Origin: Nitrososphaerota archaeon
GTDB taxonomy: Archaea > Thermoproteota > Nitrososphaeria > Nitrososphaerales > UBA57
Assembly (NCBI GenBank): GCA_013378375.1
Contig: JACAFT010000003.1
Coordinates: 1-55,068, forward strand
Reading direction: 5' to 3'
Length of the DNA: 55,068 bases
This document shows, piece by piece, positions 9,467 to 46,482 of this stretch. Both the position numbers and the translations under genes were made by a program. A model generated the notes under the pieces. The model was not told where the DNA came from, ran no database searches, and worked only from the letters and a program-made list of their open reading frames with translations. Numbering within the stretch: the stretch's first letter is position 1; every line of letters starts with the position of its first letter.

Positions 9467-10396
9467 ATGCATTTAGTGAAAATTAATTATTCATTTTGGT
9501 TGATATTATCTTTACTTTTATTTGTAACATTAGTTCCACACTCTTTTTCTCAAGCACCTGCTGTAATTAGTTCATTTCAAGTTTTAGATCCTAATGGTAA
9601 TGATGTTACAGGTGAATCTCTTGTGGCAGGAGGCAGTTATACTGTAAAATTTACTATCGAAATTGGTGCAACATTGACTGATAAAATATTATTATCTACT
9701 AATATGGAAAAATCTGGTAATGAATTTTGGACTTTAGAAAATAACTATCAGGGAATAGATACTTCAACTTGGACGCCTGGTTCACAATCAATTACATTTC
9801 AAGCTGTTGAAGGTGTGGCAGAATTTACTCTTGAAGGTAAAATATCTGAATCAATTACCGAGCGTGAGTTAACAGAAGTTCAAAAAACTGTTCATGCATT
9901 AGCGGAGGAGCGTATTCTAATTCTCCAGCTTGATTCTATGGACATTCTTGACCAACGTAGTTACGTAATTACCGACCAGATAATTATATCATATGATCAA
10001 ATACTTGCTTCAAAGAAAAATAATATTGATTCAACTTCTATGGAAGAAAAATATAAATTATTAGCTTCTGAAATAATTTCTGAAGCTGAATATCTAACTA
10101 CTTTTGGATTTTATGACGATGCAATAAAACTACTTGATACTATACCTGATTCGGATTATCCTGATCCACCTGTTGCAGCAACTCTGTATCTGGTCGCCGC
10201 TATCGTTTTTGTAATCACGTCTATTCTTTTTGGAATTCTATTTATTCGATCTAGATCTACTCGTTCTTACATTCTTGGTAGTGTTAATGAAAAAGCAGAC
10301 AAACTGGATTTATTATTAATAAAAGCTTCAAGACTCGATCAAAATCTGTCTAATGAAATTGAAACTATTAAAAAGGAGCTTAAGGAATTAGAGTAG
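9467..10396 (+). CDS. Type-I membrane protein: signal peptide, extracellular domain, one TM, cytoplasmic coiled-coil tail
   Basis: 309 aa. N-terminal hydrophobic FWLILSLLLFVTLVPHSFSQA. TM segment AATLYLVAAIVFVITSILFGILFI followed by RSRSTR and a heptad-like tail ending ...EIETIKKELKELE. It ends 8 nt before the next gene. Confidence 0.7.
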   Translation: MHLVKINYSFWLILSLLLFVTLVPHSFSQAPAVISSFQVLDPNGNDVTGESLVAGGSYTVKFTIEIGATLTDKILLSTNMEKSGNEFWTLENNYQGIDTSTWTPGSQSITFQAVEGVAEFTLEGKISESITERELTEVQKTVHALAEERILILQLDSMDILDQRSYVITDQIIISYDQILASKKNNIDSTSMEEKYKLLASEIISEAEYLTTFGFYDDAIKLLDTIPDSDYPDPPVAATLYLVAAIVFVITSILFGILFIRSRSTRSYILGSVNEKADKLDLLLIKASRLDQNLSNEIETIKKELKELE

Positions 10397-10404
10397 TGAT
10401 ATAG

Positions 10405-13092
10405 TTGTCTGATTATACTAGTTCAATACAAATAGTAGGTCTAGGTGGAACTGGAGCAAATGTTATCGAGGCGTTTATCCAAAATCGTGAAGATTTAGTT
10501 CCTTTACTTAAAAATGAAGGAATAAAAGTATCTCTTCTTGCACTCGATGTAGCTGATCATGATATACGAAGTCTTGATATGACATACAAAAACTTGACTG
10601 ATGATTTGAAAACACATAATATCCCATCAGATAAGATTAATCTTGTTAGTAAAACAATGAAGTTTCCTACTCCTGAATCTATGTTTGATTTTATTCAAAA
10701 TTATCCGGAATTTTTAAAACGCGAAGGTGCAACAGTACCTGATGATTTTAAACCTTGGTTATCTTCATCAATGGAAATTCCTCCTCTTGCCGGCGGTGTA
10801 GGAAGAAAACGCGCACTATCTAAAGCTATTTACGGATTAAATTATCATCATCTCAAACTTGTTGATGGTTATATGGACAAGTTTAAGGAACATGTCTTCA
10901 CGTCAACCATTCAACCAATTATCTTTCTTGTTTATGGGCTTGGCGGTGGTTCTGGAAGTGGAACTGCACTAGATTTTGCTAGACATTTACGTAAAAAAAT
11001 AGGAAGCGGTATACCAATTATTGGACTTGGAATTCTTCCTTGTGGTGGTGATGATCCTCCTGCTAAAGGTTCTTCTTGTTATGCATCATTACTTGAACAT
11101 GAATATGCTATTGATCGTACATTAAATCATGAAATTGTGAGTACTTATGGAGAAAGTTATCAAAATCCATTTACTGCTTTCCTTATGATGTCTTTAGGAC
11201 CTGCATACAGTAGAACTGGTAGTGTAATAGATGCTAGAAAACTTGTTGACGAAGCAATTGTTGATATTCTGATGAAATCATTGAATTTTGATCTTGCTGA
11301 TTTATTTAGTAATATTGGATCGAATGTTGATTTAGGCGGAAAGTGGGTTAATGTAATATCAACATTAAAAGTTTCATATCCTGTTGCTGAATTTATTGAT
11401 CTAACAAAAATTTATCTTGACAAACTCGATAAATTAAGAGAATTAAGAAGAGAAAAATTAGATATTTACAGTGGACATGACCAATATTCTGGCTTGGAAA
11501 CAATTATGACTGCCTCTTTTGACGAATTAAAATCTATATACAAACGTCTGAGTATTGAAAAGAATACATATGAAGAATCTCGATTTGAAGAAAATGTTCA
11601 AAGTTTTCTTGAAGAAGGAACTTCGATGGAAGCAGATTTAATCATGCATATAAGAGGAGTTGAAGATTCTACTCGTGTTTTGATTGACGATCTATCAAGA
11701 TCTGTCTTATCAATTGGTCTTGACGCAGCCGATGGAACTGTAGAGGCTCGTATAAGATCTCTTTCTGAAGAATTAATCTCCCTTAGTACCAATCTTTCAC
11801 AGAACTACCAAAAACTTCAGTCCAAGGTTAATCAATTGACAGAAGATTTACGTAGTACTTTACCTAGTGCTCAGTCTCTTACACCAAGACAAAATCAAAT
11901 TATTACTGACACTATTAATCTAGTTGATTTAATTAATCGTTATCTTACAGGTCTGCAATTATATCTTAAAATTTCCAATTTAGCTAATAATCTTCTTAAA
12001 ACTCTTGAAAAGAGTGAAACAACTCAATTACATACAAGAATGAAAGAAGCCGTACAGAGAATACTTAATCCAGAACTTGTAATTAATTTTGCTCTTCTTT
12101 CTTCTTTATTGTCTTCTATTAATACAGAAGTAAAAACATTGGATGCAAGATTAAGTGATTGTCAAGTCATGAAAAGATTAACCAGTGAACGATTAGACGA
12201 ATTAAAATCTGAAGAAGAATTACTTAACATTAAAAAACGCGGTCGCGAACAAGAAAAAAATCGAGTTGGTGGGAAAGCTAGAAGTATTAGATTTGGTTTT
12301 CTTGGACCAAAGAAAAAATCTATGCAAAATAAAGCAGGAGATTTGGGTCATGAAGTAAAAATACTTGAATCACAATTACATTCTATTACTGAAGAGCGAA
12401 AAATTGTAGAAGATAAATTAAGCGCTTTTCAAAATATAGAAAGAAAATTTGAAGTTGCATCTACATATAGAAAACTACTCACTGAAGCAACTTCATTAGA
12501 AAATTCTTACTATGAAAAATTAAATACAACAATGAAAGACAAAGGCTATTATGATCGTGTTGCTGAGCTAACTGAAAATGAACAACTTAAGATCATGCAA
12601 AAAATACTTCTTGAAGATGAAGCTTCTCTTACTCAAGAAAATATGTTAAATGAAATTATTGATAGGAAACATCTTAAAGAATATCTTTCAGGTGCTCTGG
12701 GTATATTTAGAATTCCTGCTACAATGGGATTAAATGCAGATTATAGAACAGATTATTTATGGTTCACTGTGGTTAGTCCACGTGGTCTATGGGATTCCGA
12801 TCTTGATTCCGAGGCTAAAACAATGTTATCTGGATATGTTTCTCAAGATGCTTCAAAAAGTATTTACATTCGGGAAGTTGATTCATCTGATCCTTGGACG
12901 ATGAGATTTCTTATTATTGCTGCCAAAGCATCTACTACTAATCTAGAGACATTCAAAGAAATGGATATTCTTTATAATTCAACAACTCAAGGCGAAAAAT
13001 TACTTTCACATTCTTATTTGTTAGAACAAGGCGTTCATGTCTCTCCTGGTCATCAATTATCTAAAACAGAAAAAGTCGAGGATAGAAACTAA
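10405..13092 (+). CDS. Divergent FtsZ/tubulin-superfamily GTPase with a very long coiled-coil region (895 aa)
   Basis: IQIVGLGGTGANVIEAF (nt 10438-10461) resembles the FtsZ G-box. YGLGGGSGSGTALDFA (nt 10936-10965) resembles the tubulin/FtsZ signature GGGTG[ST]G. NFDLADL (nt 11284-11301) resembles the FtsZ T7 NxDFAD. About aa 340-750 is heptad-rich and charged, followed by a globular C-terminus. TTG start. Confidence 0.8.
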   Translation: MSDYTSSIQIVGLGGTGANVIEAFIQNREDLVPLLKNEGIKVSLLALDVADHDIRSLDMTYKNLTDDLKTHNIPSDKINLVSKTMKFPTPESMFDFIQNYPEFLKREGATVPDDFKPWLSSSMEIPPLAGGVGRKRALSKAIYGLNYHHLKLVDGYMDKFKEHVFTSTIQPIIFLVYGLGGGSGSGTALDFARHLRKKIGSGIPIIGLGILPCGGDDPPAKGSSCYASLLEHEYAIDRTLNHEIVSTYGESYQNPFTAFLMMSLGPAYSRTGSVIDARKLVDEAIVDILMKSLNFDLADLFSNIGSNVDLGGKWVNVISTLKVSYPVAEFIDLTKIYLDKLDKLRELRREKLDIYSGHDQYSGLETIMTASFDELKSIYKRLSIEKNTYEESRFEENVQSFLEEGTSMEADLIMHIRGVEDSTRVLIDDLSRSVLSIGLDAADGTVEARIRSLSEELISLSTNLSQNYQKLQSKVNQLTEDLRSTLPSAQSLTPRQNQIITDTINLVDLINRYLTGLQLYLKISNLANNLLKTLEKSETTQLHTRMKEAVQRILNPELVINFALLSSLLSSINTEVKTLDARLSDCQVMKRLTSERLDELKSEEELLNIKKRGREQEKNRVGGKARSIRFGFLGPKKKSMQNKAGDLGHEVKILESQLHSITEERKIVEDKLSAFQNIERKFEVASTYRKLLTEATSLENSYYEKLNTTMKDKGYYDRVAELTENEQLKIMQKILLEDEASLTQENMLNEIIDRKHLKEYLSGALGIFRIPATMGLNADYRTDYLWFTVVSPRGLWDSDLDSEAKTMLSGYVSQDASKSIYIREVDSSDPWTMRFLIIAAKASTTNLETFKEMDILYNSTTQGEKLLSHSYLLEQGVHVSPGHQLSKTEKVEDRN

Positions 13093-13117: not shown

Positions 13118-15490
13118 TTGTCTAAATTAATCAATTCTTCTGTAATTGATAAAGTTGGATTTCGACCGTCAACCGATATAGATGATGCTGTTGAACGTGA
13201 AATAGAATATAGAAAGAATTTAAAAAAAATTTTTCTTGCTAGTACTATATTCTTACTTAGTGTATCTCTTCTTTATCTTGTACCATTATATCCTGTTCCT
13301 ATTGTTTTCCTATTCTCTATTGTTTCTGCCGTTATTGGTTTTCGTTCAGTCTTAACAGGTTTCTTATTTTCTTTGTTCCTATTCATTCCTGCTTATTTAT
13401 ATCAAACATCGGTTCCTTTTTGGTGGCTTTTGATTAATTTATTTATTATTGGAGTTGTATTAGCAAAATCTACACAAGATTCAAGTCATATACTTGCTCT
13501 TGTCTTTGGTATTATTTCAGGTCTACTATTTTTAACTCCATATTATTTTGTTTCTATACCTCTAATGTTGTTATATGGAATTGTTCGAAAAGATTCTGAA
13601 TTCTTTAGAAATACTGGATTATTATTTGGTTTCTTATTTATTTTTATTCCTTTTAATGCTCTTGCATTTTCTAAACATCTTCTGCTAGATGTTAGTACAA
13701 TGACTCAACAAACAATTTATAATAAAATGATTGACAGTTCATTGCCTTTATTTACGCAAATTATTTATGACCAAAAATCTCGATTGGTGTCTTTTGATAT
13801 ACCTGTTATTGTTGATTCTTTTTCTGGTCTTTTAACTATACAAAATAATTTATTTAATCCATTTTTGTATATACTTATCGATAAACTCGTATTATTATTT
13901 ATTCCAATTTTACTTGTTCTTTCATTTTCTATTATGGGAGTTCTTGAGAGAATATGGCCTTGGATGGAATCACGTGAAGTTGAATTAAGTATACTTCCTC
14001 GTTATTCTTCAATTATATCACTTATCTTGGGCACTGCGTTTTTCATTATTCCTCTACAAACTATGCAAATACCATTTGACTACCATACTAGTTTTGATTC
14101 ACTTAATTCTATCAAATCCCTTTCCATTGCAGGGGCCCTTGGTCTTGTTCTTTCATTAAGTTCGATTAATTTATCCAATCGCTATGAAGGTGCTGAACTT
14201 ACTGAATCTGTAAAAGCTAACTGCATTAAATCTCTGGACATTGTAGATGAATCTAACAATCAACTCAATGAAATACTATCTGTATGTCCTGGTATTGATA
14301 TAAATGCAGAATTTGCTCAGATGAATGAATACAAAGAAGAACTTAGTATTACTTTGGATGTTCTTGATACGCTTTCTTATAAAGGACTTAAGGAGAAATC
14401 TAAAAAACTCTTTCATCTGTCTGATGGACAATCTTCTCGTGCAGATTCAATTAGTTTTAAAGTACTGAATTATCATAATGATCAATTAGATCAATGCCAA
14501 AAAATGCTTAAAATATTAGATGGTTTAGGTATTAATAATCTTCCTTCAATTGATTCTGCGCATTTATCTTATAACACTGAAACAAGTTTCACTGATGTTC
14601 TTGATAATCAAAGAGATCTAAATGATTTTCTCATCGAGATTTCTCAGAACACTATCAAAGTTACAGAAAGCTTAGTTGGAGTTGTCCAAAAAGAATTTGA
14701 CACTACTCTTGAACCAACCTCTATATCTATTAGTGATAATTTTATTCACCAAGGAAAAGGACAACAAGCTTTAGAGTCACTTATAGTAACAATTCAGTCT
14801 CTCCATAAAAGATATCATCGCACGATGGAAAAAACAATCGGTAGTCTTAAACGCTTAATCCAGCGTTCAATCAAAATACATGAGTCTCATGTTCTTCCAT
14901 TGAACGAATCTCTTGGACAAAATCCTTATGACGAGCAAACCGGTTCTATTGCGAAAGAGATTAATCTTCACTTTGACGAACTTCGAGGTTTTCAAGGTAT
15001 TCTTTACTTACCTGATGTTATGTATAGGTTGGAATTTCTAGAATCCGGTACTCATACAGTTATTAGTGAATTACTGAGATTATTGCGAGAATTTGAAAAA
15101 CGAAATGATTCACGAGTACCAATGGATTTTCATTGGGGCAAAGATACTCAATTAATTTCTGAAATTGAATCCTCATTACGCCGTTTAGACGACCAATCTA
15201 AAACTGATCTATCTGATCGGTTGTCAAATATTGAATACGGGATTAAAATTATTGAAAATGAAGCAAATACACTGAAGAAATATCTTATTATGAATGAATT
15301 TATTCTAAATTACGTTAATATGGAGCCTCTTATTTCTTCTTTAATTAGTATTGAAGGAAAAGTTCTTCCCAAACAACTTCCTGTGAAATCAAAGTATGCT
15401 ATACAATATCTGCAACTTTTTGCATTTGGTAAATCTAAAATTACTTTCAATGCAAAAACTGATACATTGACAAAAATTACTAAAAACTAA
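13118..15490 (+). CDS. Polytopic membrane protein (N-terminal about 350 aa, multiple TM segments) with a large helical cytoplasmic C-terminal domain
   Basis: 790 aa. The N-terminal half has repeated hydrophobic stretches (IFLASTIFLLSVSLLYLV, VIGFRSVLTGFLFSLFLFIPAYL, LLFIPILLVLSFSIMGV and others). The C-terminal roughly 430 aa are hydrophilic and helical. No recognisable family. TTG start 25 nt after the preceding gene. Confidence 0.65.
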   Translation: MSKLINSSVIDKVGFRPSTDIDDAVEREIEYRKNLKKIFLASTIFLLSVSLLYLVPLYPVPIVFLFSIVSAVIGFRSVLTGFLFSLFLFIPAYLYQTSVPFWWLLINLFIIGVVLAKSTQDSSHILALVFGIISGLLFLTPYYFVSIPLMLLYGIVRKDSEFFRNTGLLFGFLFIFIPFNALAFSKHLLLDVSTMTQQTIYNKMIDSSLPLFTQIIYDQKSRLVSFDIPVIVDSFSGLLTIQNNLFNPFLYILIDKLVLLFIPILLVLSFSIMGVLERIWPWMESREVELSILPRYSSIISLILGTAFFIIPLQTMQIPFDYHTSFDSLNSIKSLSIAGALGLVLSLSSINLSNRYEGAELTESVKANCIKSLDIVDESNNQLNEILSVCPGIDINAEFAQMNEYKEELSITLDVLDTLSYKGLKEKSKKLFHLSDGQSSRADSISFKVLNYHNDQLDQCQKMLKILDGLGINNLPSIDSAHLSYNTETSFTDVLDNQRDLNDFLIEISQNTIKVTESLVGVVQKEFDTTLEPTSISISDNFIHQGKGQQALESLIVTIQSLHKRYHRTMEKTIGSLKRLIQRSIKIHESHVLPLNESLGQNPYDEQTGSIAKEINLHFDELRGFQGILYLPDVMYRLEFLESGTHTVISELLRLLREFEKRNDSRVPMDFHWGKDTQLISEIESSLRRLDDQSKTDLSDRLSNIEYGIKIIENEANTLKKYLIMNEFILNYVNMEPLISSLISIEGKVLPKQLPVKSKYAIQYLQLFAFGKSKITFNAKTDTLTKITKN

Positions 15491-16473
15491 ACTAGCAAAC
15501 TAACTTGCTTTAATGAATCTTTTAATAGTTTTTCTATTTTTTCCTCAGTTTCGGATATTAATTGCTTAATTGTATTTTCTGTTTCTCTAAATGTTTTTGT
15601 TGAATATTTAGAATTGTCAAACAAATTATCGGAGAAATGATTGTTTATTATTGGAATGTATTTTAGTACATTGGCTTGCGCTCTATCTCTTTCTTCTTTC
15701 TTTCCTAGCTTATCAAAATAATCTGCTTGAAATATAGCTACTGTGAATAGATAAAAGAATTGTAAATTTTGCCAAACTGGTTTTACTGTAGGTGTAAATT
15801 CTTTCCATTCCTTGTAAGGAATTTGCCCATATAGAACTTCACCTAATGAATCCATTGTTGATTTGATCGAATTAATTATTGTAATAGAATCTCTACTTTT
15901 TATTGCCGTTTTAATTTTTTTTGTGTCATCCTGTAAATTTATTTTATTATTGTTTAATGTCGAAGATAATTCATCAAATTCATTCATCATTTCATCTACT
16001 CTGTCCCAATTATACTTCATTGTCTCATTGATTAGGTTGAATAATAGCGAAACAAATGTCCATGTCTTAAAAATTGTGTCATAAATATAAGTTGAATAGT
16101 TTATTTGGTTCATTCTTTCATCAATTTCACTTTGCTTTTTGTCTACGTAACGTTTTTTGTTTTCATTTACAAGTGTATTGATATTTTCTATTATTTCGTT
16201 TGTTTCAACAGGTGTATCGATTGTTAATGTTACGACTTGATTATCCTCCTTTTGAGTTATTAATATATCAAAATATCCTTCTTTTTTAATTATACTTATT
16301 GATTCTATTTTTATAAAAAATTCCGGTTCAAATTTTTTAGATAATATTCCTATTTTTCTTTCAAATGAAATTCCATCTTTTGTTATGAATAGCCTGCCCT
16401 TTATTTTCTTTTTTTCAAGATTTAATATTACTGATTTGTATTCTCCTATAACCTTGGAATTGTTTTTTATCAT
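15487..16473 (-). CDS. PH/GRAM-like N-terminal domain protein with a helical C-terminal domain
   Basis: 328 aa. KKIKGRLFITKDGISFERK...FFIKIESISIIKKEGYFDILITQKED resembles bacterial PH/GRAM-like domains; the rest looks predominantly helical. Its stop codon overlaps the stop of 13118-15490. Confidence 0.55.
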   Translation of the reverse strand: MIKNNSKVIGEYKSVILNLEKKKIKGRLFITKDGISFERKIGILSKKFEPEFFIKIESISIIKKEGYFDILITQKEDNQVVTLTIDTPVETNEIIENINTLVNENKKRYVDKKQSEIDERMNQINYSTYIYDTIFKTWTFVSLLFNLINETMKYNWDRVDEMMNEFDELSSTLNNNKINLQDDTKKIKTAIKSRDSITIINSIKSTMDSLGEVLYGQIPYKEWKEFTPTVKPVWQNLQFFYLFTVAIFQADYFDKLGKKEERDRAQANVLKYIPIINNHFSDNLFDNSKYSTKTFRETENTIKQLISETEEKIEKLLKDSLKQVSLLV

Positions 16474-16558
16474 ATTCTATATTATTTAGTAATCAAATAT
16501 AGCAATTACGTATTTTTTAACCAATTATTTTTATTATCCTACTGTCTGATATATTATT

Positions 16559-17884
16559 ATGAGTGGCACAAATAATCGTAAATTTTACACTTATGATTCA
16601 TTTATTTTTTGTCCTGTAGGTCATAAAAATGTAAGTGGATTGGATGAATGCGCTTCTTGTAACATGCCTCTTATAAATTTTAGAAAAGAACTTTCTACTT
16701 TGATATCCAATCTTGAAAGTATTAATGGTGAAAAACATAATAAAATAATTAATTTTGGACTTGGAACTTTTGGATCACAAATATTATCATCATTAAAAAA
16801 TGATTTTGGTTCTGAACAGCTTTTTAATTATCTTATGATTGATTACGAAGGCTCCAATGTTGATTCACTTATTCCTGACAACGATGATAGTTTGGAACAT
16901 AATTCCTATTCTGTTGCTAATGATTATGATTCAAAAACTAATATATGGAGTAATTTTGAAAATAATTTTTCTCAATTCGATCAACTTGAAGATAAGATTC
17001 GTCGAATTGGACTTAATAATAATATTGACGAACAAACTGCAATACTCACCGGTTCTATGGGTGAAACTCTGGTTTCAGGTATGACTCCTCCATTACTAAA
17101 AAAAATTAAACAAATAAACCCTAAAACTTCTCGATTAGTTTTAACTTCTTTACCTGCTACTAGTGATACTGATCAAGTACATTTTAATGCTTTTTGCGGT
17201 GTGTCTAGATTTATTCGTAATCAAAAAACTTCTGGAGATATGTTGGTAGTTTTACAAGGTGATGCGTTGGAAAAAATGATTGGTATAGATAGATCTGGAA
17301 AAAAATTAGGTTCTGATTTTTTGATTCCGCGTATGGTAAATCTGTTAACTAATAATAGTCCTGCAATTAATAGTCTAAGTAAAATTGCAAAGTCTCTTAA
17401 AGTTCTTGCATTTGCACCAGTATATGTCTATGGAAGAAGTTATGAAATCTACGATAATCTAAAAAATATTCTCGACGATGCTGCATATTTTCCATTATCA
17501 CCTTTCCAATATGAATCTGTTATTCTTAATGTTATAATAGTTCGAGCACCTGAAAATGTACTTAATGTTGTTTCCAAAAAACGTATTGAAGCTGATTGTA
17601 ATTTGTGGAACCGCAAGAGGTTTCCTTCATTAAAAGAATCTCTTGTTTATGTCTTACCTGTTAAAGATACTTCAGATCGATTGGATGTTTTATTGCTTCT
17701 TGGCGGTGCAAAATTACAGAATATTATCCAGTCTGTACAACCGGGTTATGAACGTTTTAAAGAATATATTCGAGAACGTGATTTATGGGATGAATTTCAA
17801 ATTAATGAGGACGATCTTAAAAAATTCGAAAATACAATTACCAGTTATGATAAAAATCTTGCTAAATTGTTAAAACCAAATTGA
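16559..17884 (+). CDS. Zinc-ribbon plus degenerate FtsZ/tubulin-like domain protein (441 aa)
   Basis: N-terminal CPVGH...CASC. IINFGLGTFGSQILSSL (nt 16754-16780) is G-box-like. YLMIDYEGSN resembles FtsZ INTDAQAL. AILTGSMGETLVSGMTPPLL (nt 17048-17080) sits at the signature-loop position but is degraded. LVLTSLP and DMLVVLQGDAL follow in FtsZ-like order. Confidence 0.5.
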   Translation: MSGTNNRKFYTYDSFIFCPVGHKNVSGLDECASCNMPLINFRKELSTLISNLESINGEKHNKIINFGLGTFGSQILSSLKNDFGSEQLFNYLMIDYEGSNVDSLIPDNDDSLEHNSYSVANDYDSKTNIWSNFENNFSQFDQLEDKIRRIGLNNNIDEQTAILTGSMGETLVSGMTPPLLKKIKQINPKTSRLVLTSLPATSDTDQVHFNAFCGVSRFIRNQKTSGDMLVVLQGDALEKMIGIDRSGKKLGSDFLIPRMVNLLTNNSPAINSLSKIAKSLKVLAFAPVYVYGRSYEIYDNLKNILDDAAYFPLSPFQYESVILNVIIVRAPENVLNVVSKKRIEADCNLWNRKRFPSLKESLVYVLPVKDTSDRLDVLLLLGGAKLQNIIQSVQPGYERFKEYIRERDLWDEFQINEDDLKKFENTITSYDKNLAKLLKPN

Positions 17885-17891
17885 TTTTTTG

Positions 17892-20800
17892 TTAAGATAA
17901 ATCCCTCTTGTTATTGTTATAATTGGGAAGTATTCTTTCCATTGCTTTATTTATAATAAATGAAAGAATAATAATTATTGTAAATATTCCTGCGGTGATA
18001 AAAGTAATCATAGAATCTGATCTATACATGTTTACTTGGAGTTCCACATCGCCATTGGTAATTCTTTTTGTAATTTCTTCTTGTTCTCCTCTATATTCAA
18101 TAAAAAACTTGTAATTGCCTGGTGTAAGCTTATCAAAAACTGATTCTTCACTCGTTAGTGTCTTGTTTTGCACTTCACCAATCATTGTAATATCTGCATT
18201 ATTGATAATTCGATTGAATGGATCTCTTAATTCTACTGTTACTTTATAGGATTTTAGATATATTGTTATTTTATTTTCTGGTAAATTATCTTCTAGACTA
18301 TTAATTATTATTGTTATTATTAATCCTTCATCAATAATTTCTACTGGTATTGTCTTGTCGTTCATTGTTACTATTATTCTTGACGAATCTGATTCCATTT
18401 CAGAAAATAATGAGTTGGGAATTTTTATAATTGACATTAAATTATAATTCTCATTTTTTGCTATTGTTAATTGTATTGCATCGATTCTTTTTTGTTCTAT
18501 ATGACTAATTAACGACGACGTAGAAAGTATTTCAATTTTTGTGTCATCGAATTTTAATTCAGAAAATTCTGTTATCATGAAATCACTTTCTTTCGTTGTT
18601 ATTCTGAATTCTAACGATGATTTTGAAATAAGTGATGATTTTAATGTCCGTGTTTGTGGTTCAAAATCAATTATTTTCATTCCATATAGTTCAAAATTAG
18701 TTCCTAATTCTCCATTGATTATAATTGATATATATTCTAAATCTACTCCTTCTGAAAGCAAAATCATACTTACTGGATTTTGTGTTTTTACCATTCTGTC
18801 ATTATTTGACCATTGATAATTGCTTTTTGAACCGTTTGCAATGAAATTCTTGTTTGAATCTTGTACCTCTATGTTTACTATTCCATCTACCAGTATTATT
18901 GATCCAATACTAATCAAAGAATCTGAAAATCTATATTCATTGGTTATATCAACATTACAAATAGTTATACAATCGTAAATCAACGCTGATAAAACTCCAC
19001 CATGTTCTGGAATTGCAGCATACGCTAAACGAAAATTCAACTTTTCTTTTATGTTTATTGGCATTTCTATATCACTTGATATTATCATCGTAGAAGGTTC
19101 AATGACTAACCATTGATCATCTATGTTTGCCTCGACCCATGTTTTCATTAATGCACTAGGAACTTTATTGTCTGCAGATGAGCTCATTGTACCTATTACT
19201 GGTCTGACTTCTATTTCTAAAGATCTTAATAAACTTCCGAATAATATCTGCGACGTTCTGGAATCTCCTTCAATTTTATTTCCATTATTTATACAACCAC
19301 TTATTCCAAACTCTTCAACAATGTCGGATGCTTTTCTCATATTGACATCTTGTGCATTCTCAATTTTGTCTCCTACAAATTGCAAAATTACTTTTACTTT
19401 ATCTATTTCTAGTGCATTTTCATTTACTCTTGATTGTTCTAAAATTTCAGACGCACAAATTTTAACTTTCTCATCCGGTATCATTAGTTCATTCATTGTT
19501 GGCAGGTATTTTGCACCTAATACCTTTCCTATGTTGGCTATTTGTCTTTTATCATTCATCGAGAAAATTTTTAGTTCTTTATTAGCTTCTTTGTTATTGC
19601 TTCCAGTTTTTTCAAGAATTATGTTTATTGAACCTTCTCCTGTTCTAGTATAATTTACTGAAAATGCATAACTTGTTTCAGAATTTGGTTCCAAGTATAT
19701 CTCTTTTTCAGTTGGCCAGATGATCAATCCATTAATGTTCGTAGAAGTTTTAATTACTACATATCCTCCTCGAAGCTCTGTATTTGAAAGAGTCACCCAA
19801 ATTTGAGAACTTTCACCTTCAAATCCAGTATTTGACATTCTTATTGATTCTATCATGACCATTGGGAGTAAATCATATTGAATTTTTATGGTTAGGGGTT
19901 TGGTCACGATTAGATTTGTGGGGTTTGCTGTTCTCTGTTCTGATCCATCTGCCGATTCTATAACCCATTGCATGAACCCATATTCATCTACTTTTTTCGT
20001 TGCTTCTAGCTGTAATTCATATCCATCGTCTACCCATTCTTCATCAAAAGTCGTTACTAAATTAATTAAAAATGGAGGTTCTACTATTTTTGTTAATTTG
20101 TATTGTTTAATGTATTCTGCATAAATTGTTTTTGGACCATCTATCATTAAATCCAAATTAAATTGATCTGCTGTTATTGCTCCTGTCCATTTATTGAATC
20201 TATATCTTTCTCCCTCTGATATGTCAAGTATTTCTATTGTACTGAGAGTTATTATTGAATTTTCTTTATGCCATCCTGCTCCTTTGGCGTCAATTAAACC
20301 TAAAAATTCTCCAACTGGGGAAGTTCTTATGTTCAATAAAAATTCCCTGTCAAATTCTGCCGTGAATATCATTGATCCTTCAATTTCTAAAACTTTTTCA
20401 AGATTTACATCATCATCACTCCATGAATTAAATTTATATCTAGTTGAATCGTCTTCTGGTATTATTTCTTTGTCTAGTCGTATAGTCCAACTTGAACCTT
20501 GTTTAACTAGTTTTGTAAATGGGAGTTGTTCTGGTTGCTTTGTACAAACGTTTTCACATTCTCCTCCTGCTGTAGATCCGCATTTGACTGTTGTTGTTTC
20601 ATTACAGGTTAAAATAATTGTGGCAATATTGTCTCCATTTTCTTTGCTTGTTGAACCTATTGTTAACTCAAATAACTTTAGTATATCCAACCACACCGTA
20701 GCCGTTGTATCTGATTTTAGTGATGTTGCAGTTATAATGAGTGGAGTGGGTTCTGCTGGAGTTTCTGTTGTAGTTTTAATAAAAAGCTCAACTTCTTTTG

Positions 20801-22376
20801 TTTGTGACTGGTCTAATGGAACAGTTCTGTCTGAGAATGTAATTACTATGTCTTCTCTATTATCTAGGTTTGTTCTTAATTCAATTGTATCACTAAATCC
20901 TCCAACTGGTATTAGTACTAGTTTTATTCTTTCTGTGTCACCTTGCCACATTTGTAACTCAGCTTTACTAAGGCTTAATGTAAATTCTGCTATTGGAACT
21001 TCGACTGAAAAAGACGCACTGCTTGTTAGATCACCTGATTTTCCTTTGATTTGTACACTGTGAGTTCCTGGTTCTACGTTACTATCAATAAATACTGTTA
21101 CTGTTGTAGTTGTTGCCCCGTTAGCTTCAGGTGTTAGTTTATTTTCAAGAAAGGATAAAGTGATTCCAATTTCCATATTTTCATGACTTAATTCAACTTG
21201 TGAACTAAATCCGTCAGTTGATTGTATCGTTAAGGTTAGACTTTTTGAATCTCCTGCATTGATTTGATTTGCATCAGGCGTAATCGAGAGAAGAAATCCT
21301 CCTTTTACTGTAAGGACTAGGTTGTTTTCATCTTTCGCATAATTAGGTTTATCTGCATCTCCTCTTATTGTTATTGTTTCTGAAGTTTTGGCTGTAAATG
21401 TCCCACTAAATTTTCCATTTGCATCTGTTGTGCCTGTTACGTATGTTGCTAAATTTACAAATGTTCCATTTCCTCCTATTCTTTGTAATGTTACTGAAGC
21501 ATCACTTACAGGATTGCCTGATGAATCCGTTACTGTTGCTGTTATAGTTGTTGGTTGGAAAATTGTTAATGATGGTGAATCTGTTGAAAGAGTAATTGAT
21601 AAAGGATTTGATAAGATTTTTACTCTGAGACTTATAGTATGTTCAAGAGTACCAACTTTCCCTTTAAGATTTAATAATACACCGTCGCCATTTGCTTCAG
21701 CGTTACTGTTTGCGATTACTCTTACCGTTATTGTATCTTCTCCTCCTTCCGGCACATTTATATCTCCTATGTAAGTTATTGTGGCCCCTGTCATAGACAC
21801 TGATTCTAATTCAACTGGCCCTGAAAATCTTGTATCGACGTTGTTTGTATCCTTAGCTGATCTAATTGTTAGTGTTACGTCTTCTTGTTGACCAGGCCTT
21901 AATGATATCGTACTCTTGTCTGCCGTTATTTCAAAATCTGAAATATACAAAGTTATAGTTTTTTGCGCGTAATCTGTAGAATCTCCACTATTTACTGCTT
22001 TAATCGTTATTTGATAATTACCAGTTTGAGCTGAAAGTTGTGGTGTTAAAATTAATGTAGAATTTTTTGTTGTACTACCAAGAAGAAAATATTCAAAAGA
22101 TTGTTGTGACACAGAAGTGCTTAATCCTGTTGGCACTCCACTGATTTCAATACTTACTGTTCCATTGAACGATGAGGAAACTTCTCTTGATAATTCTATT
22201 CTTATTGATTTACTGCCTCCCTTTGTAACTGCAATTTCTGAAATTGTACTTGTTTGATCTAGTGTTTCAATATTTATATCAAAATTATTACTGCTGTCTA
22301 TATCTGCTGCAAATGCTGATGGAATCATAAATATAATTAAGGCGACCGATAAGCAACAAAGTAAGATATTTCTCAT
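17892..22376 (-). CDS. Giant secreted, C-terminally anchored multi-domain surface protein (Ig-like/Big, InlB-B-like repeats, CarboxypepD_reg-like module)
   Basis: 1494 aa. Signal peptide MRNILLCCLSVALIIFMIPSAFA. Ig-like segment TITATVTDSSGNPVSDASVTLQ. Repeats with YKFNSWSDD, YRFNKWTG and GFMQWV. The C-terminal VELRDPFNRIINNADI...LTPGNYKF is followed by a TM segment MITFITAGIFTIIIILSFII. Confidence 0.7.
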   Translation of the reverse strand: MRNILLCCLSVALIIFMIPSAFAADIDSSNNFDINIETLDQTSTISEIAVTKGGSKSIRIELSREVSSSFNGTVSIEISGVPTGLSTSVSQQSFEYFLLGSTTKNSTLILTPQLSAQTGNYQITIKAVNSGDSTDYAQKTITLYISDFEITADKSTISLRPGQQEDVTLTIRSAKDTNNVDTRFSGPVELESVSMTGATITYIGDINVPEGGEDTITVRVIANSNAEANGDGVLLNLKGKVGTLEHTISLRVKILSNPLSITLSTDSPSLTIFQPTTITATVTDSSGNPVSDASVTLQRIGGNGTFVNLATYVTGTTDANGKFSGTFTAKTSETITIRGDADKPNYAKDENNLVLTVKGGFLLSITPDANQINAGDSKSLTLTIQSTDGFSSQVELSHENMEIGITLSFLENKLTPEANGATTTTVTVFIDSNVEPGTHSVQIKGKSGDLTSSASFSVEVPIAEFTLSLSKAELQMWQGDTERIKLVLIPVGGFSDTIELRTNLDNREDIVITFSDRTVPLDQSQTKEVELFIKTTTETPAEPTPLIITATSLKSDTTATVWLDILKLFELTIGSTSKENGDNIATIILTCNETTTVKCGSTAGGECENVCTKQPEQLPFTKLVKQGSSWTIRLDKEIIPEDDSTRYKFNSWSDDDVNLEKVLEIEGSMIFTAEFDREFLLNIRTSPVGEFLGLIDAKGAGWHKENSIITLSTIEILDISEGERYRFNKWTGAITADQFNLDLMIDGPKTIYAEYIKQYKLTKIVEPPFLINLVTTFDEEWVDDGYELQLEATKKVDEYGFMQWVIESADGSEQRTANPTNLIVTKPLTIKIQYDLLPMVMIESIRMSNTGFEGESSQIWVTLSNTELRGGYVVIKTSTNINGLIIWPTEKEIYLEPNSETSYAFSVNYTRTGEGSINIILEKTGSNNKEANKELKIFSMNDKRQIANIGKVLGAKYLPTMNELMIPDEKVKICASEILEQSRVNENALEIDKVKVILQFVGDKIENAQDVNMRKASDIVEEFGISGCINNGNKIEGDSRTSQILFGSLLRSLEIEVRPVIGTMSSSADNKVPSALMKTWVEANIDDQWLVIEPSTMIISSDIEMPINIKEKLNFRLAYAAIPEHGGVLSALIYDCITICNVDITNEYRFSDSLISIGSIILVDGIVNIEVQDSNKNFIANGSKSNYQWSNNDRMVKTQNPVSMILLSEGVDLEYISIIINGELGTNFELYGMKIIDFEPQTRTLKSSLISKSSLEFRITTKESDFMITEFSELKFDDTKIEILSTSSLISHIEQKRIDAIQLTIAKNENYNLMSIIKIPNSLFSEMESDSSRIIVTMNDKTIPVEIIDEGLIITIIINSLEDNLPENKITIYLKSYKVTVELRDPFNRIINNADITMIGEVQNKTLTSEESVFDKLTPGNYKFFIEYRGEQEEITKRITNGDVELQVNMYRSDSMITFITAGIFTIIIILSFIINKAMERILPNYNNNKRDLS

Positions 22377-46277: not shown

Positions 46278-46324
46278 GTTTTATATTATCATTTTATACA
46301 GATAAATTTTTTTTATCGTTGTGA

Positions 46325-46418
46325 CGCCGTGAGTGGGATTTGAACCCACGATTCCTTGCGGAGACAGGATATTTGCAGAATAGCAATCCTGCGCCTTACC
46401 AGGCTAGGCAACCACGGC
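46325..46418 (-). tRNA. Class II tRNA, most likely tRNA-Ser(GCU), with a very short (about 10 nt) insertion in the anticodon loop
   Basis: Minus-strand parse: GCCGTGG TT GCC TAGCCTGGTAA GGC G CAGGA TTGCTA[ttctgcaaat]A TCCTG TCTCCGCAAGGAATC GTGGG TTCAAAT CCCAC TCACGGC G. The long variable arm, 3-bp D-stem and G73 discriminator fit Ser. Confidence 0.7.
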
Positions 46419-46482
46419 ATAAGAAATGTCGTTATTGCCATTATTAACGTTTAAAAAAAACTGAAACAAATATACGAATTAA

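Follow-up and report, generated by a model that had tools for sequence, protein, structure and literature searches.

Gene E (16559..17884, + strand) lies in a 55 068-nt stretch of DNA from a Nitrososphaerota archaeon (contig JACAFT010000003.1, positions 1 to 55 068), referred to below as the window. It encodes a 441-amino-acid (aa) protein in which an N-terminal zinc-ribbon precedes a predicted tubulin fold. It is found in a gene set with gene B (10405..13092, + strand), identified by Pfam and by alignments as encoding an FtsZl1 (Tubulin_2) GTPase of 895 aa that includes a long stretch of helical or coiled-coil structure. Protein E represents a variant at family level that is new to the tubulin/FtsZ superfamily, and a component of FtsZl1 systems that had not been described; it belongs neither to FtsZ proper nor to the Nmar_1262 type. 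On the basis of sequence comparisons, E is proposed, at a probability of roughly 0.55, to be a non-catalytic structural partner of FtsZl1 that would be in physical contact with it. Three tubulin-superfamily genes were recognized in these thaumarchaeal genomes; judged by their motifs, a complete GTPase site is found in FtsZl1 alone, and a canonical FtsZ is not among the three. The set formed by genes A, B, C, D and E points to an undescribed two-tubulin membrane-associated system in archaea and Chloroflexota.

Since 2010, FtsZl1 has stood as a 'membrane-remodelling' candidate on computational grounds only, and no partner from the same superfamily was known. A further tubulin-fold protein linked to FtsZl1, which appears to have shed its GTPase motifs repeatedly under selection, provides a concrete and testable architecture: one catalytic tubulin, one non-catalytic tubulin and defined membrane anchors. 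The B/E pair would offer a natural comparison for the origin of catalytic asymmetry in tubulin pairs. The results also correct the reading of cytoskeletal genes in non-ammonia-oxidising marine thaumarchaea.

Architecture, fold and nucleotide site of gene E

Gene E was delimited using the open reading frame (ORF), its orthologues, an AlphaFold2 (AF2) model and fold searches. Its translated frame is open from an ATG start to a TGA stop. Every motif listed for this gene in the initial annotation was recovered, in the order given there: the T1 segment IINFGLGTFGSQ (residues 63–74), YLMIDYEGSN (91–100), TGSMGETLVSG (164–174), LVLTSLP (193–199) and DMLVVLQGDAL (227–237).

The zinc-ribbon occupies residues 15–37 (16601..16669, + strand) and was defined from alignments and the AF2 model. 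Its ligands are C18, H22, C31 and C34, in the context C18-P-V-G-H22 ... C31-A-S-C34. All four are invariant in 14 orthologues and 17 relatives, at identities as low as 21%, and the CxxxH...CxxC fusion proposed earlier is therefore a property of the family. In the AF2 model the ribbon forms short beta hairpins at residues 15–17 and 23–25 (predicted local distance difference test score, pLDDT, 65–79). Pfam Zn_Ribbon_1 was matched by just two of 59 relatives (E-value 0.0025). In the orthologue alignment, 16 invariant positions fall within residues 15–45, and nowhere else in the protein are invariant positions as dense as in the ribbon. By its sequence the N-terminal segment has the four ligands and two knuckles of a zinc-ribbon; zinc binding itself is predicted.

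The remainder of the protein was divided into two domains. The N-terminal nucleotide-binding-type (Rossmann-like) domain covers residues 60–250 (16736..17308, + strand), according to the PF00091 alignment and the comparison of the family profile with the PDB. Helix H7, the second (activation-type) domain and the C-terminal helices cover residues 252–441 (17312..17881, + strand), according to alignments, the AF2 model and superposition on tubulins. The C-terminal half contains the highly conserved segments YGRSYEIYD, FPLSPF, WNRKRFP and SDRLDVLLLLGG.

Membership of the tubulin/FtsZ superfamily was assessed at the level of the single sequence and of the family. With the single sequence, PF00091 aligned end to end (profile positions 1–189, residues 62–241) with an E-value of 1.3e-5 and 26 bits, below the 33-bit cut-off. 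The best PDB matches of the single sequence were phage and plasmid TubZ proteins, at a non-significant E-value of 0.03. Taken alone, these matches are suggestive only. PF00091 was matched by 43 of 59 family members, and a profile of the 59 members matched FtsZ (6e-20) and CetZ (about 4e-19) in the PDB, as well as TubZ, BtubB and the Asgard and Odin tubulins; all of these matches cover the N-terminal domain. NCBIfam gave nothing for gene E at E-value ≤ 1, including the FtsZ equivalog TIGR00065. PF13809 (FtsZl1) did not match E and matched eight of the 59 relatives weakly; the 441 aa contain no coiled-coil insertion. A word-indexed search returned 58 relatives, unannotated or 'hypothetical', from metagenome-assembled genomes (MAGs) of marine Thaumarchaeota/Nitrososphaerales. 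A profile search of 1.84 billion representatives returned only 102 proteins at E-value ≤ 1e-3, and the family is rare.

The structure of E was modelled with AF2 using a 91-sequence alignment (pLDDT 84.8, predicted template modelling score 0.82). This model was used throughout; a model from a 14-sequence alignment (pLDDT 42.7) was discarded. Foldseek matches to the model reached an E-value of 6e-15 with template modelling scores of 0.62–0.66. In VIA-align comparisons the best match was BtubA (Z 32.9 over 350 residues, root mean square deviation 3.2 Å), followed by beta-tubulin (Z 32.8), Asgard AtubB (Z 31.8), OdinTubulin (Z 30.9), gamma-tubulin (Z 30.4) and CetZ (Z 29.0 and 27.2, about 308 residues). 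Scores were lower for TubZ (Z 24.7), FtsZ (Z 24.5) and PhuZ (Z 21), and unrelated Rossmann folds gave Z of about 10 at best. The FtsZ alignment covered 285 residues of the predicted model and stopped at residue 384; tubulins were aligned over 350–360 residues and their alignments extended to residues 439–441. Residues 60–441 are thus predicted to form a complete tubulin-type body including the C-terminal helices. As a whole, the gene product is predicted to be soluble, with an N-terminal CHCC zinc-ribbon, a short helix and then the complete two-domain tubulin fold. The 'FtsZ-like' assignment of the initial annotation was accordingly right about the superfamily, as judged by the family-profile E-values (6e-20 to 7e-19, FtsZ/CetZ) and by the predicted structure (Z 33 to tubulins), and imprecise as to the branch within it. 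'Tubulin/CetZ-like' is the more accurate label, since both the Z scores and the C-terminal helices favour tubulin and CetZ.

The nucleotide-site loops were then compared within the clade of the window. The T1 loop, GLGTFGSQ (16757..16780, + strand), is kept as GxGxxGS, with G67, G69, G72 and S73 invariant. The T5 motif DTDQxxFNA is also invariant, including the asparagine of FNA (N210). At T3 the GAGN motif is gone and only a Trp is left. At T4 (17048..17080, + strand) TGSMGETLVSG stands in place of GGGTGSG. Most clade members read G-E-(T/P/N/A)-(L/I)-x-S-(G/A) at this position, which is GETLVSG in this gene. G168 and E169 are invariant in the 14-orthologue alignment, S173 is also listed as clade-invariant, and one genus (g72) deviates with LSEGIVAG. 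At T6 (LQGDAL, 17252..17269, + strand) the guanine-contacting Asn found in relatives (DNxxL) is replaced by an invariant Q233-G234. The T7/H8 region (NSPAINSLSKIAKSL, 17351..17395, + strand) was compared with relatives of the G285 group (G285 being a thaumarchaeal genome of another family), which read I-N/D-x-x-D-L at the T7 site. In the clade of the window T7 is six to seven residues shorter, reads AINSLSK and does not contain the conserved acidic residue.

The alignments thus indicate that T3, T4, T6 and T7, which serve phosphate binding, base contact and trans-activation, are altered together in E. The loss of the phosphate-binding signature noted earlier extends to T3, to the T6 asparagine and to the T7 acidic residues. 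Given what is established about these loops in tubulin and FtsZ, the four alterations would abolish GTP binding and hydrolysis in E. Most likely, E does not bind and hydrolyse GTP canonically, and it does not stimulate hydrolysis by an adjacent subunit either.

Conservation and ancestry of the altered signature

Gene E was unbroken in 14 of the 15 genomes of the window's family, all five genera being represented, and the altered T4 signature was retained in all five. Ratios of non-synonymous to synonymous substitution rates (dN/dS, Nei–Gojobori method) were 0.05–0.13 for pairs with dS of 0.14–0.6. More than 130 positions were invariant among orthologues with identities as low as 42%. Gene E is under strong purifying selection. 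The expectation that the degraded signature would be kept in orthologues by selection, and would not be a product of decay, was borne out for a family-level clade of five genera. One genome of the same genus as the source (G305, 92% complete) had neither E nor FtsZl1 in the searches made. In another genome (G311), two copies of the E locus with the same scores were found, on contigs C1 and C4; this duplication is probably redundancy of the assembly.

The gene amoA was present in none of the 15 genomes of the window's family, versus four of four in the neighbouring ammonia-oxidising family. The genomes of the window's family are marine and of about 0.8–1.9 Mb. This family fits the heterotrophic marine thaumarchaea of PMC7300363, where merely an 'FtsZ-based system' is mentioned. 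Searches of 180 genomes from the ammonia-oxidising family gave no gene E, and searches of 56 of these gave no FtsZl1 (gene B).

Homologues with an intact signature were found outside the family. In G285, which also lacks amoA, E keeps the ribbon and its T4 loop reads GGGMGSG. A profile of the GGGTGSG subfamily detected 27 loci in Dehalococcoidia/Chloroflexota MAGs at identities of at least 31%. The homologues inspected among them read LGGGTGSG at T4 and keep the ribbon. From these sequences, E of the amoA-less thaumarchaeal family is judged to descend from a GTP-binding ancestor whose state survives in Chloroflexota and G285. Because relatives outside the clade keep both the ribbon and an intact signature while the clade itself is under purifying selection, the loss appears derived and selected, not a decay. 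The initial annotation had allowed that orthologues might retain GGGTGSG and that this copy would then be a mutated lineage-specific variant. Retention was seen only outside the family (Chloroflexota; G285 with GGGMGSG), and the loss is lineage-specific in that sense; inside the family the altered form is fixed and selected.

The partner of FtsZl1 is degenerate in a different manner elsewhere. In one lineage it is of a WDG(I/V)GSA type without a ribbon, and in another the protein is truncated to about 325 aa. Approximately unbiased (AU) tests were made on both trees. A single clade of all degenerate forms was not rejected on the E tree (p 0.22). Uniting the degenerate forms was rejected on the B tree (p 0.014), for a group defined post hoc, after the tree had been seen. 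At least two independent degenerations of the E signature are therefore probable, not proven.

The FtsZl1 module

The initial annotation had placed an intact paralogue 6 kb upstream of E. Gene B is indeed present there with intact T1, T4 and T7 motifs, and belongs to FtsZl1/Tubulin_2 instead of FtsZ. It matches PF13809 (Tubulin_2) with an E-value of 3.5e-11, and its motifs are GLGGTGAN (T1), GLGGGSGSG (T4) and NFDLAD (T7). Across module variants these motifs (T1 GLGGTGxN, T4 GGG[ST]GSG, T7 FD[LPI]xD[LM]) are conserved wherever the region is present; three rows of the B alignment do not include T1 owing to the chosen ORF start.

Gene B is the constant neighbour of E across module variants in two domains of life. 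In a sample of 401 genomes of the phylum, B was detected in 16. All nine other genomes with a strong E match carry B, which is adjacent to E in eight and on a consecutive contig in one. Five further genomes with B come from families with a truncated form of E, termed E′; E′ lies beside B in the three examined. The last of the 16, G339, has B, and no E was found in it. The B and E trees are congruent and contain the same subclades, with path lengths about three times longer for E, which evolves faster. The functional link to the upstream GTPase that had been suggested is thus upheld by neighbourhood in every module variant, in both domains, and by congruent trees.

The other genes of the module encode membrane proteins and one soluble protein. 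Gene A (9467..10396, + strand) is predicted to encode a type-I membrane protein with a signal peptide, an ectodomain of about 215 aa, one transmembrane segment (242–260) and a cytoplasmic coiled-coil tail. Gene C (13118..15490, + strand) has about nine predicted transmembrane helices (residues 50–350) together with a helical domain of some 400 aa that is presumably cytoplasmic. Gene D (15487..16473, – strand), characterized by synteny and hhalign, encodes a soluble 328-aa protein. NCBIfam gave nothing for A, C or D, and Pfam nothing for A or C, orthologues included. The protein atlas gave no usable match for the cytoplasmic half of C; for the N-terminus of D it gave weak PH/GRAM-like leads (0.78–0.82, chance level). 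Gene D of the window is homologous to D of Dehalococcoidia (hhalign 99.8%, E-value 1.6e-28), and D is common only to the window's family and the Chloroflexota operons. The stop codons of C (+ strand) and D (– strand) overlap at 15487–15490; because of this overlap, their transcripts must converge without an intergenic terminator.

Genes D and E diverge from an AT-rich intergenic region of 85 bp (16474..16558). Direct inspection of the sequence shows a TATA-like TTTTTATTAT some 22–31 nt upstream of the ATG of gene E; it is weak evidence for a promoter, as the G+C content of the genome is just 31%. Gene F (17892..22376, – strand) is convergent with E. It encodes a 1494-aa surface protein with a C-terminal anchor, Big_1 and carboxypeptidase-regulatory-like Ig domains and a weak transglutaminase-core match. 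Gene F adjoins the module in every locus examined of the window's family; G285 has a weak match only.

Gene order was compared between lineages. In the window's family, the order A-B-C-D-E(-F) was held in every locus examined (four of the five genera), even at 22–30% identity. In G285 the module is present and rearranged. Two other families of the phylum have the order A-B-E-C in four of the five loci examined, the fifth contig ending before A; there E is on the opposite strand, is of the WDG(I/V)GSA type and has no ribbon. Two more families have A-B-C-E′, with an E′ of about 325 aa that does not contain T1–T3. In Dehalococcoidia/Chloroflexota, B, C, D and E are co-directional in nine of ten fully flanked loci, and A was seen in the one locus whose A region was listed. 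In Dehalococcoidia, D lies between C and E and shares their strand. The ribbon is absent from the variants that have no D (f27, f48, f24 and f63), and ribbon and D co-occur in the window's family and in Chloroflexota. G285 is an exception, with a ribbon in E and D not found.

The tree of B places the window's family as the sister group of Chloroflexota (Shimodaira–Hasegawa-like approximate likelihood ratio test, 96). Because the operon occurs in many MAGs of Dehalococcoidia (contigs L053–L077 of Dehalococcoidia/Chloroflexota) and their FtsZl1 is the sister of the archaeal one, the data suggest an inter-domain transfer of the whole module between Dehalococcoidia and archaea.

Proposed role and comparison with known systems

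In the proposed role, E would join the intact GTPase FtsZl1 (gene B) and might also associate with the cytoplasmic parts of A and C and with the soluble protein D. Together they would form an assembly at the membrane, with B as the only subunit that cycles nucleotide. The nucleotide-face loops of E (T1, T5 and the invariant 'IDRSG', residues 243–247) would fit docking of the T7 face of B. A tethering function of the ribbon would fit its top conservation and its co-occurrence with gene D except in G285.

Several observations weigh against E being such a partner. In a closed MAG chromosome of Dehalococcoidia (L070), D and E are accompanied by a 122-aa C fragment and there is no B within 10 kb. 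In genome G339, B lies beside Cdc6/Orc1 and no E was found nearby. The neighbouring 410-aa gene was considered as a partner of FtsZl1 in that genome and was rejected, being Cdc6/Orc1 itself. In the window's family E is outside the A-B-C transcription unit, with its own divergent promoter region shared with D. Finally, because T1 (GxGxxGS) and T5 (DTDQxxFNA) are invariant, E may hold a remodelled ligand pocket, even for a nucleotide.

A more far-reaching version of the partnership is entertained tentatively, as a possibility that is more doubtful than the contact itself. Here B and E would form an obligate hetero-assembly of two dissimilar tubulin-fold subunits, an independent prokaryotic use of the alpha/beta-tubulin principle. 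B alone would cycle GTP, E would be nucleotide-free or permanently locked, a state reached probably at least two times independently, the ribbon would tether the assembly to membrane components, and the five-gene machine would have moved between Bacteria (Dehalococcoidia) and Archaea. Alpha/beta-tubulin and BtubA/B are paralogue pairs with unequal catalytic roles, and the same logic is proposed for B and E. The pairs differ in that B comes from a markedly different subfamily, whose members carry a large insertion of helices; a B–E heterodimer is a proposal only.

E could instead be a nucleotide-binding, self-assembling filament former resembling CetZ or tubulin, with an unusual pocket, and could share a pathway with FtsZl1 without being its hetero-partner. 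This is unlikely, although the invariant T1 and T5 residues (including N210 of FNA), the retention of the whole tubulin body with its C-terminal helices and the full GGGTGSG of the bacterial relatives would all be expected of such a protein. Tubulins (BtubA/B, OdinTubulin, Asgard AtubA/B; Z 31–33) and CetZ (Z 27–29) are the best structural matches of residues 60–441. The identity of E to them is only 11–15%, and E differs from them by the absence of GGGTGSG, of GAGN at T3 and of the T7 acidic residues and by the presence of the N-terminal zinc-ribbon. Of the attributes of a CetZ-type protein, E thus has the fold and not the intact GTP site. Self-assembly is difficult to reconcile with the joint alteration of T3, T4, T6 and T7; from general knowledge of these loops, the Glu, Thr, Leu and Val that replace the T4 glycines should clash with phosphate binding. 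Other lineages even truncate T1–T3 of the partner, and Nmar_1262, whose signature is comparably degenerate, did not polymerise in yeast (PMC3684127).

It is also rather improbable that E serves mainly as an adaptor for the membrane components (the cytoplasmic domain of C, the tail of A, or D) and does not contact FtsZl1, its tubulin body being an inert scaffold and its ribbon the docking element. The dense invariance of the ribbon (16 invariant positions in residues 15–45), the divergent promoter region common to E and D, and the joint absence of D and ribbon in f27, f48, f24 and f63 are consistent with an adaptor. The E protein of G285 has a ribbon although D was not found, and it is B that is the constant neighbour in all variants.

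A TubZ-like DNA-segregation protein with a DNA-binding zinc-ribbon is very improbable. TubZ and PhuZ are distant tubulin-fold relatives, TubZ was the top single-sequence PDB match (E-value 0.03) and zinc-ribbons in general can bind nucleic acids; however, these sequence matches are not significant and the structural scores are just Z 21–25, the score to TubZ (24.7) being lower than those to tubulin and CetZ. The context of E is chromosomal, syntenic across genera and rich in membrane proteins, with no TubR-like, plasmid or phage genes adjacent and no centromere. That E is the decaying relic of a once-functional GTPase is hardly tenable: its canonical motifs are lost and it evolves about three times faster than B, but this is contradicted by the selection data (dN/dS 0.05–0.13), by a frame open in 14 of 14 carrier genomes and by the more than 130 invariant positions across orthologues.

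The preferred reading, in which E is a non-catalytic partner of FtsZl1, was compared with published FtsZl1 operons, which were predicted to be membrane-remodelling systems (Makarova and Koonin, 2010, Biol Direct 5:33; PF13809 Tubulin_2). As in these operons, gene B combines an N-terminal tubulin-like GTPase with a long coiled-coil or helical region, and it is accompanied by membrane proteins without recognizable domains, as published for lineage-specific components. The published operons differ by their vWA proteins, protein kinases, P-loop GTPases and OmpA proteins. The Chloroflexus operon described there (vWA-FtsZl1-COG0576) also differs from the present module. Where the text and supplementary files of that work were searched, they name no second gene of the tubulin superfamily. 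E itself is distinguished from FtsZl1 proper by having neither a PF13809 match nor a coiled coil. Tubulin_2 proteins were used as an outgroup by Santana-Molina et al. (2023). No description of the E family or of its pairing with FtsZl1 was found in the literature searched, the coverage of which was incomplete.

The possibility of a cap or nucleator, raised in the initial annotation, has a parallel in gamma-tubulin, a tubulin-fold non-polymerising partner (minus-end nucleator or cap) of a polymerising tubulin, to which E aligns with Z 30.4. Gamma-tubulin retains an intact GTP site, unlike E. As a guide to the function of E, this analogy is speculation only.

Nmar_1262 is a thaumarchaeal FtsZ-like protein (Pelve, 2011; Busiek and Margolin, 2011; Ng et al., 2013, PMC3684127). 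It has the degenerate signature AGKAGSA, failed to polymerise in yeast and is not believed to drive division (PMC3684127). E resembles it as a thaumarchaeal tubulin-superfamily protein with a degenerate signature. E differs by being 100 aa longer, by its zinc-ribbon and by not being found in the 180 ammonia-oxidiser genomes; the E profile matched the FtsZ-like ORFs of about 330 aa of ammonia oxidisers only at an E-value of about 1e-6. The third tubulin-superfamily gene of the source genome (contig C43:13203-14216, minus strand) encodes 338 aa and matches PF00091 with 38 bits. It is also present in 14 of the 15 genomes of the window's family and agrees in length class with the ammonia-oxidiser ORFs. 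Its T4 signature is degenerate and variable in the family (PGENLSS in the source genome, PGEKICA, ADGDLGS). Judged by length class and degenerate signature, this gene is the likely counterpart of Nmar_1262. E was considered as an Nmar_1262-type orthologue and rejected, as the separate 338-aa gene appears to fill that role. An hhalign comparison of the E clade with the 338-aa gene was not significant (E-value 0.07). The ADGDLGS form resembles 'WDGVGSALLP' of the ribbon-less E variant, which hints at a possible relationship between the E family and the Nmar_1262 type.

Further matches of the E profile were noted outside these groups. In the MAG 'archaeon isolate S141' (L081:9989-14132), a four-gene stretch contains three E-like tubulin genes (380, 337 and 388 aa), with a 262-aa ORF between the second and the third; the profile matches were 1e-15 to 1e-24. 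Haloarchaeal matches (L084, L086 and L091) have LGGGTGNGS-type signatures. The L081 and haloarchaeal genes may correspond to the 'Halo.Tub' quasi-tandem paralogues of PMC9871819. Elsewhere in the window, ARAGORN predicted a 97-nt transfer RNA (tRNA) with an unassigned anticodon (46323-46419, – strand), which is probably an intron-containing archaeal tRNA.

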